Source: Cladosporium halotolerans
Taxonomy: Eukaryota
Length of the DNA: 64,000 bases
Assembly: GCF_011745625.1 (NCBI RefSeq)
Contig: NW_027191488.1
Coordinates: forward strand, 1-64,000
Direction: 5' to 3'
Made by a program: the position numbers and the translations under genes. Positions 36,502 through 43,408 of the stretch are shown here, in pieces (within the stretch, counting starts at the first letter, position 1; each line of letters starts with the position of its first letter). The notes under the pieces are model-generated. The model made no database searches. It was not told the origin of the DNA and saw only the letters and a list, made by a program, of their open reading frames with translations.

Positions 36502-39500
36502 CTAGAGCGTCCTCTTCTCGCTCCTCTCCTCGTACGTCTGGATCGTGTCGCCAACCTCGAACTTCTCCCAGTCCCCGAAGCCCATACCGCACTCAGTGCC
36601 CTTGCGCATCTCCTGTACGTCCTTCTTGACGTTCTTCAGCGACGAGATCGTGCCGTCGTAGACCTTCTCATCGCCTCTCATGACCCTCACTCTCGAGCCG
36701 TGGCCGATGACGCCGTTCCTGACCTTGCATCCGGCAATCTTCATCTTCTTCCTGCCGCCGATGCCAATCTCGAACTCAGCACCGATCTCAGCTTCACCCA
36801 GCACGCGCTGTGTGATGAGCGGCGGAAGCCTCTCTTCGAGCACGGCCTTGACGTCGTCGAGCACGCGGTAGATGATGTTATTTTCGAGCACCTTGACGCC
36901 TTTGGCCTCTGCTTGCATCTTTAGACCCTCATTCGGAGGTAAGTTGAAGGAGATGATGTGGCCTTGAGTGGCATCCGCAAGCTCGATGTCAGACTCGTTC
37001 ATCGCACCGACTGAGGATGAAAGAACGAGCGGTGCGACCATGGGAGAGCTGACGCTCATGATGTAAGCCTCAACAGCCTCGGCCGAACCGGACACGTCGG
37101 CCTTGATGATAAAGGGTACCTCTATGCGGCCGCCGGAAGATGCATCAGCCTGAGCGGCAGCAGATTTGGCATTGGTGTCTTCGCCTTCCTCACCGGCTGC
37201 GCGTCGCTTGGCTTCCGCAGCAGCGCGTTTCTCGTTCTCACGCTTCTCCTGCGCCACGCGGCGGGCCTCATTGATGGCTTCCATGTCTTCGGCCGTCTTT
37301 TCGCGCTCGACCTTCTCGAGGCGGTACTCGACGACAGACGTGGCCTTTTGCTCGGTGGGGGCCTGCAAAACCTCGTCACCGGCGGCTGGCTGATCGCGCC
37401 AACCGTCAACCTCTACAGGCATACCTGGAGTGGCTTCCGAGATGGCAACACCGACTTCGTTGTGCAGCGAACGCACACGAGCCCAGGTGTTGCCTGCGAC
37501 AATGACGGAGCCCAGCTTCAGCGTGCCTCTGCGCACAAGCACAGTAGCGACGCGGCCTGCCTTCTTCGTGGTAGCCTCGATGACCCAACCCTCCACCGCA
37601 CCATCACGGTCGGCGCGGTGGTCGAGGATTTCACCGAGAGTGACAGCAGCTTCTTCGAGCTGGTCCATACCCTGTCCGGTCTTGCCCGAAACTTCAACGA
37701 CCTGTGTGTCACCGCCGAAGTCTTCGATCTCCACACCGTGGCGGGCGAGATCCTGCTTGACGCGCTGGATGTCCGCGCCATCCTTGTCAACCTTGTTGAT
37801 GGCAACGAGCATCGGGACACCGGCGCCCTTGGCGTGCTTGATGGCTTCGAGCGTCTGCGGCTTGACAGAATCGTCAGCAGCCACAACGAGAATCACGATG
37901 TCCGTGACGTTTGCTCCGCGCTGGCGCATGGCAAGGAAAGCAGCGTGGCCGGGTGTGTCGAGGAACGTAATGGTCTTTCCAGATGCCGAAAGAGGGACGC
38001 TGAAAGCACCAATGTGTTGTGTGATGCCACCAGCTTCGCCAGCAGCAACGCTAGACTTGCGCAGGTAATCCAGAATGGTGGTCTTTCCATGGTCGACGTG
38101 ACCCATGATAGTGACGACGGGCGGTCGGGTAGGCAGTAATTCCTTGTCTTGAGCATCAACCTCCGGCCTAGCCTTCAGGTCGCGCTCTTCCTCCTCGCGG
38201 ACGCTTGTGTCGAAGACTGGCTCCAAGTCGTATTCCATCGCAATGAGACCGCTGACTTCTGTGTTGAGAATCTTGCCAGGGAACACATCGTCGTAGCCGA
38301 GATCCTCCAGCCTGTTCACGAACTGCTCGTAGCGCACACCGAGCGCCTGAGAAAGCTGCTGCACAGAGACGAACTCGGGCAGCTTGATCTGATTCTTCGC
38401 CTCGGCTTGTGCCGCGGCTCTCTCGGCTGCACGCTGGGCCTTCTTCTCAGCGCCCTTCGCTTGCTTCCTCTCCGCCTTGCGCGAGAAGCGCCCGCCGTCG
38501 TCATCGTCTTCGAAATCGCGGCCACGGCGCGAGCGACGTCCCGGGCGATCGTCATCGTCCTCGTCCTCGTCTCTTCGGTTGCGTCGGCCCGGCTTCTTTT
38601 CGCGCGGCTCCTCGTCTCGGAATTTGCGAGACCTGAGCACGCGCTCCTCGGGCTCTTCCTCTCCCTCACCCTCATCCTCAAAACCCTTGCTTCGCATACG
38701 TGCCAACATCTCTTGGCGCGGATCAGTGCTCCTGGCGTCGTTGTCCATCCGAGTACGCTGGTAACGCTCCTCTGCTGCTCCCCTATCGAAGTCGCGATCG
38801 AGACGCTCCTCTGAGGCGTTCTCGTTGGATTCGCGATCGTTACGCCCTCTTTGCATCTCTCTGCGATTGTCTCGGCGACCATTCCTGCGGTCGTCTCTCG
38901 ACCTATCGCCGGGCTTGCTGGGGCACTCGGAAGCTTTGTGGCCGACGACATTGCAAAAGTTACATCGCGTAGTCATCGGGTTTGGACATTCCCGCGCAAT
39001 GTGCCCTTTCTGTCCGCAGCGCCCGCAAGTCCTCGTCGTGCCAGAAGTTGAGTTTGGGTTGGCGAATTCCGGCTTCCAAGTTCGCGACTGGGGCTGCAGG
39101 TGCGAGGTCATGGGACGCCGGAGAGCGGCGCGCTCTTGCTGGTGCTCGGCGAAGCGGCGGTCGATCCAGGCGTCGTCTTCCATTCCGGGCTGGGCTTGCT
39201 CGGGGGGAGCTGGAGGCGCTGGTTCGGGTTGACGGCGACCGAGGTGCTGCCAGTTGTCCGGCGCGTCGGATTGGGGAGGGGTGAAGCTGTACTCATCGCG
39301 GCTGATGGTCCTCGCACGAGTTGGTGGCGGCTGGGGCAGGTCTTCTTGCCCCATGTCGAAGTCGGGGTCGAGAATGTCGGAGATGGAGTGCTTAGAGGGT
39401 TGCGGCTTTTTGGGTCTCTGAGGTAGGCTTGCACCAAGTCCAAAACCTCGATTAGGCTTCTTAGGGGCTTCTGCTTGTGGGGGAGTCACGACATCAGGCT

Positions 39501-40400
39501 GAGCTTCAGGTTCGGGCTCCACTTTGGTAGGTGGAGGTGTAGGCTCATTCAATCCGTATTCCAGAGGCTTACGCTGGGAAAATCCAGAGCCCCATCCTGT
39601 AGCCTCGGGCTTCTCCTGGTTAGCTGACTTGGCTTTCAAGAAGCTCGGCATAGAAGGAAGTGCAGGAGGTGCTGATGATGCTTGTGCCGTGGATCCCTTG
39701 CCGGATGACGCCTGATGCCGTCTGTGTCTCCCCGCTTCACGTTGTGGATGTTCTTGTTTCTCTCCTTCGTTTGGTACCTGACGACCATTCGAAAAGCGTA
39801 TGTTTAATTGAGGCCGGCCGTGCTGCTGACCGGCATTTCGAGGGCGCTGCGCATGCTGCTTTTGCTGTTCTTGCCTTCGCTGTTCTTGCCTTCGCTGTTC
39901 TTGCCTTCGCTGCTCATGACTTCGCCGCTCGGCAGCCTTATGTTCTTGTTGACGTGCCCGTGCAGCCTCCAAAGCCTTCTTGCGCGTTTCCGCTTCTTGT
40001 GCTTCCCTTTGAGCCCTTTCTTCTGCTACCCGTCGGGCTTCTAACTGTGCTTTTTCCGCCGCCTCTCGCCTTGCTTTTCGCTCTGCTTTTTCCTTCTGCT
40101 CGGATGCTGAAAGTGACGAGTTCGGATCGAAACCGGTCCAGCGAGGGGCCGCATTGTTGGCGCTGTTGTCGCCCGACGACGCTTGTCCTGATGCTCCATT
40201 CTCATCTTGCCTCTGCCATCGACTGATGCTAAATGCTCTCTGCTGCACAGCTGGCGACGCCCTCACGGTGAAGTCGCCGCCGAGCCGACATGCGCAAAAC
40301 GCGCATACATTCTGCGCCGAGGTTGTCTGTGATGGTCAGCAGGGAACAAGGATAACGTAATTATGGTGGCATTCACCTTCAGCAACCTCTGCGACCTCAT
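36502..40400 (-). CDS. IFM1: Mitochondrial translation initiation factor 2 with long N-terminal extension
   Basis: Exon 1 40400-40377, intron 40376-40327. G-domain RPPVVTIMGHVDHGKTT, GGITQHIGAF, DTPGH, NKVD, IIKADVSGS and C-terminal KGTECG. Confidence 0.95.
39864..39923 (-). repeat. 15-bp coding tandem repeat (EQRRQ unit) in IF2
   Basis: Plus-strand GCTGTTCTTGCCTTC x3 followed by a degenerate fourth copy. Confidence 0.9.
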
Positions 40401-40644
40401 TACTGATTATTACCCTACACAAGCGAACGAGGTTGTTCTTCGATGCGAGACAAGTCAAGTTTCCCTTTTCGGCAATGCTGCTCGCCCGCAAATTGGCTTC
40501 GGGGGAGACTCGCAGTGGCCGCGCGACGACCCTGCAGGCTGATCGGCCACTTTCTCTCCATGACGCGCTCCATTGTATTAGAGCTCTACTAAAACAGCTG
40601 CTCGCCCTCGTCGCCCTTTCTGGATACTAACTCATCCAGCAAAC

Positions 40645-41034
40645 ATGTCTCGTCAGGTAAGCGCGTCAATGTCGTTCATTCGTCTCATTCACTGATCAAT
40701 TCTTCAGCAAATCGCCCTACACTACTCTCGTCTCCTAAGCCGCTGGCCCGTCGACCGCCTGCGCCCAGCAGAGCTACACTTCCAGCGTCTCCTGCAGAAC
40801 CGCATCCAGGAGGCACCTGCAGGTTCCAGAGACGAGTCTCACGACGTTAATGCCGCCTACCTGCTCTTGGACAATGCCATCCGCAAGCGTCATCCGCTCT
40901 CCGACTCTATGATGCACCCTGCCAGCAAGCCGGATCATTACGATGCTTTGGCCAAGGAGCTTGATGAGGCGCCTGACAGGACTTGGTTCGCCAATGTGGT
41001 CAAGAGGATGCAGAACCTCATTAGGTTCAAGTAA
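40645..41034 (+). CDS. CBP6: Cbp6/UQCC2-like cytochrome b synthesis / complex III assembly factor
   Basis: ATG at 40645, intron 40657-40707. Product MSRQQIALHYSRLLSRWPVDRLRP...MMHPASKPDHYDALAKEL...IRFK shows the WPxDxLRP and PxSxPxxY family pattern. Not in the ORF track. Confidence 0.75.
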
Positions 41035-42199: not shown

Positions 42200-43408
42200 T
42201 CATCTTCCCAAAGACCCCTTCCGCAACCTCTCCCCCAACTCCGCCACCCGCCTCGCAACCCTCTCCCCATCCTCCTCCGGCCCAAATCTCTCCCTCACCC
42301 ACTCCAAATCCCTCTCATGCTGCGTCGCAGCATAATACTTCCAACACCCCTCCTCGCGACTCCACTTCCGATTCGGCACGTACGCTTCCAGATTATAGTA
42401 ATTGTCCCTGTGGAACGGGAACTCGTACGACGGCGGGCCTTTGCGCGCCAGGTACTCATCGGACTCTTTCGCCACGTCCGCGAGCGAGAGCTGGTACGGT
42501 CTGTGCTCGGGCAACACGGGGCGGGCTTTGATATATTTCGAGCGGCGGAGGATGGTGCGTGTTGTCGTATCGAGGTGGCGGGCGAGGAGCGCCGCGTAGA
42601 CTAGTGGTTGGGTCATGGCGGTGTAGACGAGCGTGGCGTTGCGGGCGAGGAGCTCGCGGTTCCATTCGGGCGACTGCCCGCGAGGGATCATGGGAATCGG
42701 TTCGCGGTTGTCCAGGGATGATTGCCAGTGGGCGAGGTCGGCGATTGTACAGAGGTTGTTGTAGGCGAAGACGCAGGTCATGCAGGTGCAGATTGCTAGG
42801 GGGTCGAGGGGCTGGACGTGTTGGTAGGGTTTCTTGTGGATGGCGAGGAGGTCTTGTCGTTTGGCCGAGAGGAGTGAGGGGTGGTATATTGGGTCGATTG
42901 TGGAGAAAGAGACTGGGAGAGGGAAGCACTTGCTAAGGATAGAGTAGCGGGCACGGATGAGTTCCTTCGCAAGTGAGGATTCGTTCTCGTGAATGTAGGC
43001 TTGGGTGGAGCGGTTGAGTCGCTGCAACTGCAAGAGATCATTTGGCCTCAGGTATGTGAAAACTTCATGGAGGAGTTCGGAAGGTAAGTCTAGGAAAGAC
43101 TGAGGTTTGGGCTTGGGTTTCTTCTTGGATCTCCTCTCAAGCCGCTTCTGTAAACGTTCTGTCTTCTTGGAACGCAGCTGCAATGCTGCTGTTGTGTCGA
43201 TTAGAGGCTCATCATTTTCTTCGTCCGCTGTGAGTGCTTGCTTCCTGGGTTTCTTGCCCCATGAAGGTGCTGCCACATATTGGTATGCTTGTACTTCTTC
43301 AGCTGGCGGGCTTGCAGTGAGGACGGAGTTTGACCGATCTGTATCTGGCCTTGGGTATAGCGGCTTAATCGATGTAGATGCTGGTTCATCTTGGCCAGTT
43401 GACATCAT
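42200..43408 (-). CDS. F-box domain protein
   Basis: FLDLPSELLHEVFTYLRPNDLLQLQRLNR F-box, followed by a conserved-looking CTCMTC-containing domain. Confidence 0.85.
   Translation of the reverse strand: MMSTGQDEPASTSIKPLYPRPDTDRSNSVLTASPPAEEVQAYQYVAAPSWGKKPRKQALTADEENDEPLIDTTAALQLRSKKTERLQKRLERRSKKKPKPKPQSFLDLPSELLHEVFTYLRPNDLLQLQRLNRSTQAYIHENESSLAKELIRARYSILSKCFPLPVSFSTIDPIYHPSLLSAKRQDLLAIHKKPYQHVQPLDPLAICTCMTCVFAYNNLCTIADLAHWQSSLDNREPIPMIPRGQSPEWNRELLARNATLVYTAMTQPLVYAALLARHLDTTTRTILRRSKYIKARPVLPEHRPYQLSLADVAKESDEYLARKGPPSYEFPFHRDNYYNLEAYVPNRKWSREEGCWKYYAATQHERDLEWVRERFGPEEDGERVARRVAELGERLRKGSLGR

Follow-up and report, generated by a model that had tools for sequence, protein, structure and literature searches.

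What appears to be the ordinary and sole mitochondrial translation initiation factor 2 (mtIF2) of Cladosporium halotolerans carries two tandem zinc knuckles of the CX2CX4HX4C type in a long N-terminal arm. Its gene lies on the minus strand of the stretch analysed here, positions 1 to 64,000 of contig NW_027191488.1 (GCF_011745625.1); these 64,000 nucleotides in full are called the window below. The knuckles are a real, expressed and conserved feature, and their conservation indicates that they are a selected add-on in the disordered arm of the factor. As to what they do, we lean slightly towards a flexible RNA grip of low sequence specificity, which would aid mRNA loading or IF2 anchoring, the binding itself being predicted.

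38986..39027, minus strand: zinc knuckle 1, residues 442-455, consensus C-[GA]-R-C-x3-G-H-x-A-R-x-C, the conserved one of the two.
38923..38964, minus strand: zinc knuckle 2, residues 463-476, ligands and glycine kept, surface variable, lost in some genera.

A preliminary description of this DNA had reported the tandem knuckles, and they are indeed present at that place, separated by a linker of 7 residues; a six-frame scan of the window gives no other CX2CX4HX4C match. The Pfam family zf-CCHC (PF00098) matches two stretches with a score of 31.3 bits (E 1.9e-7), its cut-off being 20.8, and when the 652-aa arm was shuffled, a single motif of this type arose in only 4 of 100,000 shuffles. AlphaFold, run on an alignment of homologs called A4, gives the knuckles a knuckle-like local structure (pLDDT 64-75, against 32-34 in the flanks) and leaves the arm disordered apart from a short helix, the two knuckles and a 31-residue helix running into the IF2_N subdomain, with an overall pTM of only 0.34. 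A4 was drawn from two-knuckle homologs and is thus uninformative on ligand conservation.

The knuckles belong to the following gene.

40377..40400, minus strand: exon 1 of the mtIF2 gene, 8 codons, presequence start (gene model, loose contig end in run X2, homolog models).
40327..40376, minus strand: intron of 50 nt, GT..AG, with a CTGAC branch-like site (gene model; spliced form indicated in run X2).
36502..40326, minus strand: exon 2, N-terminal arm and IF2 core in a single frame (open reading frame; no joint in the knuckle region in four runs).
38224..38379, minus strand: IF2_N (N2-like) subdomain (PF04760, E 5.4e-4, under the curated cut-off here).
37639..38115, minus strand: GTPase (G) domain (PF00009, E 1e-33).
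36541..37596, minus strand: IF2 domains II, III and IV, with a charged insert between II and III (PF22042, PF11987, PF03144).

As had been proposed, knuckles and GTPase are held together in one uninterrupted open frame (40335-36502, minus strand, 1277 codons from stop to stop). This frame has no early methionine; the start is supplied by the 8-codon upstream exon, in the same way as in the named homolog models, and the spliced product is 1282 aa long. In this model IF2_N begins at about residue 654 and the G1 motif stands at residue 750, which corrects the length of the N-terminal extension ahead of IF2_N from the roughly 620 aa first given to 653 aa. PF00009, PF22042, PF11987 and PF03144 each score above their cut-off and make up the full IF2 core domain set. 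The core aligns with mammalian mtIF2 end to end, and among solved structures it is matched best by mammalian mtIF2 (E 6.6e-137), followed by E. coli IF2 (1.1e-119). The genome itself holds a single full-length IF2 match, the next match being eIF5B-like, and the closest named homolog is a Cladosporium fusiforme protein. The first 48 residues are, by composition, basic and Ser/Thr-rich with one acidic residue, as would be expected of a presequence; the mitochondrial location is a prediction.

The knuckles are retained in spliced RNA. We compared four sequencing runs (X1, X2, X6 and X11) of 23 listed with the window, the sequences coming from relatives diverged by a few percent. No run is recorded as RNA; X2 and X6 are taken as such only since spliced forms appear in them, and X1 and X11 are uncertain. 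In X2 the intron of the neighbouring CBP6 gene is spliced and a loose contig end at 40328 matches IF2 exon 1 in 11 of 12 letters (by eye), which together show that this run holds spliced RNA; the spliced start of CBP6 is present in X6 too. A gap-free X2 contig (38035-39073) spans both knuckles through the G1 motif, and an X6 contig (38661-39078) likewise spans the pair. Removal of the knuckles by an intron was considered and rejected: the gene model search found no in-frame set of donor, branch and acceptor able to excise them, and no joint skipping them occurs in the four runs, where contigs drop rare variants and hide rare isoforms.

These observations bear on the idea that the knuckles are an artefact, being part of an intron, a piece of a retroelement or the result of wrong gene joining. 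It could draw on a Hortaea model (P0047) that breaks off within knuckle 1 and on the presence of retroviral nucleocapsids among the best structural-database matches of the pair. However, the single open frame, the lack of a removable intron set and the spliced-RNA contigs that keep the knuckles speak against it, as do the same position of the knuckles in 23 named genera and the absence from the frame of any reverse transcriptase or integrase family. Indeed, no Gag/Pol or element-remnant Pfam family is matched in it at E<=1. This explanation is largely refuted already, and we find it barely credible. As for where the knuckles came from, the protein atlas gave no usable match, the genome itself contains 35 zf-CCHC matches, and motifs of 14 residues are too short to separate an ancient Gag origin from an origin in a CNBP-like gene.

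Conservation among homologs was read from a first search that used the knuckle-to-GTPase region as query and is biased to knuckle bearers; of the 8000 proteins that it scored, the figures refer to the best 120. Of these, 102 have one strict knuckle or more. Where at least 450 aa precede G1, knuckles are present in 101 of 102 proteins (two in 78, one in 20, three in 2 and four in 1), so that the cysteines and histidines are conserved in relatives, the lack of which the preliminary description had named as a refutation. The exception is the Hortaea model P0047; both knuckles are present in those of its sister clusters that have a full arm. Of the 18 shorter entries, which are probably truncated, 17 show no knuckle. 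One knuckle-bearing IF2 (P0074) is filed under Quercus suber; its sequence is of fungal type and probably comes from a contaminating fungus.

The two knuckles differ in how they are kept. Knuckle 1 begins with C[GA]RC in 77 of the 78 two-knuckle homologs and in 20 of the 21 single-knuckle ones, and the sole remaining knuckle is knuckle 1 in 20 of those 21 (one of which is truncated). Its Gly, its His and the Ala after it are invariant, the Arg following the first Gly/Ala is kept at 99%, and the Ala-Arg after the His at 100% and 85%. Knuckle 2 retains its ligands and its Gly, the latter at 100% in both knuckles of the 78 homologs, and little else. The spacing between knuckles in these 78 ranges from 4 to 10 aa and is 7 or 8 aa in 55. 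In 25 Cladosporium-like homologs all 8 ligands are invariant (25/25). Compared with the window protein at non-ligand positions, knuckle 1 of these homologs reaches an identity of 0.72, knuckle 2 one of 0.19, and the flanks 0.12 and 0.18; 30 homologs drawn at random from the remaining 76 give 0.61 for knuckle 1 and 0.23 for knuckle 2.

Could such modules be near-neutral passengers, small zinc domains of little function that drift into a tolerant, expanding disordered arm? The arm does vary from about 400 to 1300 aa and the number of knuckles from 1 to 4, the surface of knuckle 2 drifts at flank-like rates, and losses are repeated (on a tree with a weakly supported backbone, 6 changes for CCHC and 11 for the C4 finger of other fungi presented below). 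But drift would not be expected to leave eight invariant ligands amid flanks that are 12-18% identical, a knuckle 1 surface conserved across orders, and nearly always the same knuckle where a single one is retained. We therefore consider passengers quite improbable.

The pattern is wider than the preliminary description supposed, since this arm bears further kinds of RNA-binding-type module in other groups of fungi. The domain-architecture survey proposed there was made on 150 representatives from an unbiased, core-only search, 30 of which were looked up for species names (7 of them nameless). A strict CCHC knuckle occurs in 37, a C-x2-C-x9-11-C-x2-C (C4) finger in 20, both in none and neither in 93, where shuffling predicts 0.005 (CCHC) and 0.01 (C4) proteins. 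Knuckles are present in Neodothiora, Lentithecium and Microthyrium, and in Bogoriella in a form one residue short; Zymoseptoria retains knuckle 1. Taken together, they are found in named species of 23 genera, which we take to belong to the Dothideomycetes (20 of these genera come from the knuckle-biased search). C4 fingers are present in Aspergillus, Penicillium, Ascosphaera and the lichen fungus Gyalolechia, and 9 of the 127 new core-search representatives have a zf-RanBP match in Pfam. Among the core-search representatives, neither finger was found in the IF2 of Neurospora, Gaeumannomyces, Zalerion, Cadophora, Erysiphe and Tuber, nor in that of Saitoella, Letrouitia, Icmadophila, Piccolia, Vezdaea and Pseudovirgaria. 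The knuckles, absent from the named Sordariomycete, Leotiomycete, Pezizomycete and Taphrinomycotina proteins looked at, are thus lineage-specific, as had been suggested, at about the level of the class.

The C4 finger was followed in the Eurotiales by a core-only search from an Aspergillus protein. Among the 120 entries listed it is present in 103, and in 98 of the 104 with an arm of at least 400 aa, and CCHC in none. Within Aspergillus, A. similis and A. mulundensis, which belong to the section of A. nidulans, have the finger. Trp and the four Cys are invariant in 136 Eurotiales fingers, with Asp before the Trp in 80%, Phe five residues after the second Cys in 78% and Lys or Arg two residues later in 68%. 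The Asp, aromatic and basic positions are the RNA-contact positions of ZRANB2. Fingers of the ZRANB2 type need that Asp for RNA binding, and their arginines read guanines (PMC6384913). The two Asn which read the third base in ZRANB2 are not kept in the Eurotiales fingers, whose specificity may thus differ. One Penicillium finger matches RBM10, ZRANB2, TAF15 and FUS at E 6e-4 to 0.011, as against 0.36 and 0.71 for RanBP2 and Nup153. A third module, an RNA recognition motif (RRM) with intact RNP2 and RNP1 motifs, occurs in 5 of 5 proteins of a subclade adjoining Zymoseptoria (support 0.81); it directly follows the knuckles in the two long proteins of this subclade, and all five are environmental sequences.

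The positions of the fingers can be read relative to a shared motif of the arm.

39232..39252, minus strand: W-x-x-L-x-R motif, common to other Pezizomycotina classes, its W invariant in A4.

The pattern W-x-x-L-x-R matched 46 of the 150 representatives, finger-less ones included. Where the motif is detectable, CCHC stands after it in 23 of 23 proteins and C4 before it in 8 of 8; it was undetected by pattern in 15 CCHC and 12 C4 proteins. That the two fingers never occur together and lie on opposite sides of the shared motif points to independent gains, probably followed by many losses.

How might the knuckles act? Three unrelated RNA-binding-type folds (CCHC, C4 and RRM) in the same arm across fungi point to selection for RNA contact there. 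The RNA-binding accessory put forward in the preliminary description is strengthened by the presence of a RanBP2-type finger or RRM in the arm of other clades, and stands as plausible, with binding predicted. Between the knuckles and IF2_N lies the R/D/E-rich tract that had also been described.

38401..38913, minus strand: R/D/E-rich disordered linker, with a conserved island (38646-38620) and a 31-residue charged helix at its end (composition, conservation, AlphaFold).

This tract covers residues 480-650 and is made up of 24% R, 15% E and 14% D. The shoulder of the small ribosomal subunit borders the mRNA entry channel. After import and removal of the presequence, IF2_N would dock on this shoulder much as the N2 subdomain of bacteria attaches to h16 in the shoulder of the 30S subunit (PMC9192638). 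These fungi have retained IF2_N (of the 127 other core-search representatives, 119 give a PF04760 match at E<=0.005), so that the zinc-folded knuckles would be tethered at the shoulder, near the mRNA entry side, some 180 flexible Arg-rich residues from IF2_N. There they would bind single-stranded RNA with low sequence specificity, the Arg-rich linker assisting. The local concentration of mitochondrial mRNA, devoid of a Shine-Dalgarno-like word, would rise, and/or IF2 would stay longer on rRNA. The module would in this way tune the efficiency of initiation, and start codon choice would not be its job.

Several points weigh against an RNA grip, or narrow what it could read. In knuckles of the nucleocapsid and Lin28 type the residue after the first Cys stacks on guanine. 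Knuckle 1 has an aromatic residue or His there in 1 of 78 homologs and carries Gly/Ala where its HIV nucleocapsid and Lin28 matches have Trp, Tyr or His, so that the canonical guanine pocket is missing; knuckle 2 has such a residue in 35 of 78 homologs only, and Asn in the window genome. On the mitochondrial contig (32.7 kb, 28.7% GC), the 120-nt flanks upstream of the 13 starts examined contain 4-19% G, and neither GGAG nor AGGA occurs in them. A shared 5' cis-element was sought in 11 of these flanks (two genes abutting the upstream gene were omitted) and rejected: a few 4-6-mers reached nominal p<0.02 among the many tested, in at most 6 of 11 flanks, and none survives multiple testing. Together, a knuckle 1 without aromatic and flanks without a shared word argue against a sequence-specific reader of start sites and favour low-specificity binding or an rRNA or protein ligand. 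The selection of particular mRNAs or start sites, which the preliminary description had envisaged, is unsupported. Comparative data add to this side of the balance: among the 93 representatives with neither finger, Neurospora included, 76 have an arm of at least 400 aa, Piedraia hortae, a member of the knuckle clade, has lost its knuckles, and 6 of the 104 long Eurotiales proteins lack the C4 finger. The knuckle module seems thus dispensable in some lineages (Piedraia, and the finger-less IF2 of Neurospora). Finally, bovine mIF2 substitutes for the yeast protein (PMC3978653), which implies that a fungal arm is not generally needed.

The other conserved short motifs of the arm look like protein-docking motifs, and this too weighs on the same side. 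One may then imagine knuckle 1 as a protein-binding surface which, with these nearby motifs, recruits translational activators or a mitoribosomal protein. A knuckle without stacking aromatic that has invariant small and basic residues and sits among conserved motifs in a disordered arm would suit such a role, and yeast activators do contact mtIF2 (Aep3, PMC3978653; Ppr10, PMC8258696). However, this leaves unexplained the RNA-type RanBP2 finger and the RRM with intact RNP1 and RNP2 in the same arm, and the invariant Arg residues suit RNA equally well. We regard a protein hub as distinctly unlikely.

Another role would be in small-subunit maturation rather than initiation, the knuckles serving as an rRNA chaperone or quality check. 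In trypanosomes, assembly intermediates show the N-terminal domain of mt-IF-2 in contact with the decoding centre, and 9S rRNA falls when this domain is lost (PMC8784144); deletion of the N-terminal part of E. coli IF2 causes cold sensitivity and immature particles (PMC6511846). The tandem layout with its 7-residue linker resembles that of nucleocapsid proteins. In addition, a uS3m-like gene is nuclear and diverged in the window genome: no VAR1/uS3m-family match was found in the mitochondrial contig, and the only one lies on a contig of 54% GC (L014, G000:C317:96032-96550), apparently in two exons and with a presequence-like start. Hence rps3 (uS3m) seems to have moved to the nucleus there. 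Nucleocapsid proteins are RNA chaperones, which would fit with this role. On the other hand, the module varies between classes though assembly of the small subunit is common to them, and Aspergilli carry a finger though uS3m is presumably encoded in their mitochondria. A maturation role seems to us unlikely, if worth keeping in mind.

A splicing function, by which the arm would help group I introns in the manner of CYT-18, is very unlikely. The precedent is close, CYT-18 being a tyrosyl-tRNA synthetase of the same subphylum (PMC4275181), and the mitochondrial contig has three intron-like interruptions, in cox3 (L010), nad5 (L010, with a LAGLIDADG open reading frame) and nad1 (L011). A plant mitochondrial protein with a RanBP2 finger reportedly also acts in splicing (PMC8034646). 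But the contig is intron-poor, with an uninterrupted cox1, and no Rfam group I intron match was found in it, although two small interruptions show group I-like core words by eye. Zymoseptoria, moreover, retains knuckle 1 although its mitochondrial DNA is presumably intron-free, a point for which our literature search gave no confirmation.

Two further features of the mitochondrial contig were noticed. Its cox1 (L011:1166-3718) lies in an 851-aa frame that runs about 320 residues past the usual end, with GGNANNNP-like short repeats and no Pfam match. An unassigned open reading frame between cox3 and nad4L (L010:7336-8244) encodes 178 aa from its first Met, and its upstream flank resembles that of nad4L (an A-run, then G, a T-run and GTTC/GTTCC).

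The low-specificity RNA grip can be taken further, to the idea that mtIF2 of filamentous ascomycetes is an mRNA-loading factor to which CCHC, RanBP2-type and RRM readers were attached independently, doing part of the job of the yeast activators. It would assign CCHC to the Dothideomycetes and RanBP2-type fingers to Eurotiomycetes and Lecanoromycetes, with an RRM added in a Mycosphaerellaceae-like subclade. We hold this wider idea tentatively and with more doubt than belief.

Besides the knuckles, the arm contains the following features.

40294..40305, minus strand: CxxC in the presequence-like N-terminus, residues 16-19 (sequence).
39871..39915, minus strand: three EQRRQ repeats of variable copy number (15-nt deletion in runs X2 and X6).
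39583..39651, minus strand: conserved short motifs of the disordered arm, hydrophobic-P-x-F then G-W-G (in A4, P 40/42, F 40/42, W 40/42).
39130..39174, minus strand: conserved short helix before the knuckles (identity 0.77 in 25 Cladosporium-like homologs; AlphaFold pLDDT about 82).

A CxxC is found within the first 45 residues in 60 of 144 Met-starting representatives, usually with Arg next. The EQRRQ repeats said to precede the knuckles do exist in three copies, although they lie some 280 aa upstream and one 15-nt unit is missing in two of the four runs. A possible internal start at the Met at 39651, which would give an isoform without presequence, was provisionally rejected, since this Met is kept in 18 of 42 homologs and the next one is not kept. 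In run X2 the contig depth steps up near 39507-39536, being 35 towards the 5' end of the gene and 509 towards its 3' end; X1, X6 and X11 show no such step, and transcript starts cannot be read from contig depth.

Two neighbouring genes deserve mention, the first of them head-to-head with mtIF2.

40645..41034, plus strand: CBP6/UQCC2, cytochrome b synthesis and assembly factor (PF20180, E 9e-21; intron spliced in run X2).
42200..43408, minus strand: F-box protein gene (PF00646).

The ATGs of mtIF2 and CBP6/UQCC2 are 244 bp apart (window 40400-40645). This arrangement of two genes of mitochondrial gene expression suggests a shared promoter; a metagenome scan for conservation of the neighbour returned no relative.

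The zf-CCHC label (PF00098) is already marked on many of these proteins by automatic Pfam annotation, so that what is new is the pattern and its reading, and not the domain call. In the literature searched, with few subscription papers and matches judged by title and the start of the abstract, we found no description of zinc fingers in mtIF2, and the main text of two papers on the evolution of mitochondrial initiation factors (PMC3401457, PMC3978653) has no match to 'zinc'. Nor did this literature yield anything on how mitochondrial mRNAs are found in filamentous fungi. The interest of the system is twofold: in a single arm, a core initiation factor has repeatedly acquired unrelated modules of RNA-binding type, and simple mutants are at hand, four to eight cysteines and histidines forming a small mutable handle by which RNA contact becomes testable. 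How mitochondrial ribosomes find their mRNAs without Shine-Dalgarno pairing is known chiefly from work on budding yeast, fission yeast and mammals. The picture of an mtIF2 stripped of its N-terminal domains, as in a review by which the first two bacterial domains are missing from mIF2 (PMC3978653), is also corrected, since these fungi keep and extend IF2_N.

Compared with known systems, the window protein has in common with mammalian MTIF2, yeast Ifm1 and S. pombe Mti2 the core of G domain, II, III and IV with the charged II-III insert, and differs from them by its 653-aa arm with IF2_N, conserved short motifs and zinc knuckles. Zinc knuckles are not known from bacterial IF2. What the window protein does share with bacterial IF2 N1/N2 is a long, variable, charged arm before the h16-binding IF2_N (PMC9192638). 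Retroviral nucleocapsid, Lin28 and Air2 likewise have CX2CX4HX4C twice, a 7-residue linker and G-H-x-A-R in the first knuckle; unlike theirs, knuckle 1 of the window protein is without an aromatic after the first Cys, and unlike these cytosolic and viral proteins, the pair is embedded in a mitochondrial translation GTPase. The RanBP2-type finger, which is not in the window protein, keeps in Eurotiomycete and Lecanoromycete mtIF2 the Asp-Trp, four Cys, aromatic and basic pair of ZRANB2, RBM10, FUS/TAF15 and the plant organellar OZ proteins. Trypanosome mt-IF-2 likewise has a lineage-specific N-terminus with RNA contact beyond canonical initiation (PMC8784144, whose main text has no match to 'zinc'). 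CYT-18, the mitochondrial tyrosyl-tRNA synthetase of Pezizomycotina, is likewise a housekeeping translation protein with lineage-specific RNA-binding additions (PMC4275181): there, surface adaptations serve a proven role in splicing, whereas in mtIF2 whole small domains have been added, for a role that is predicted.

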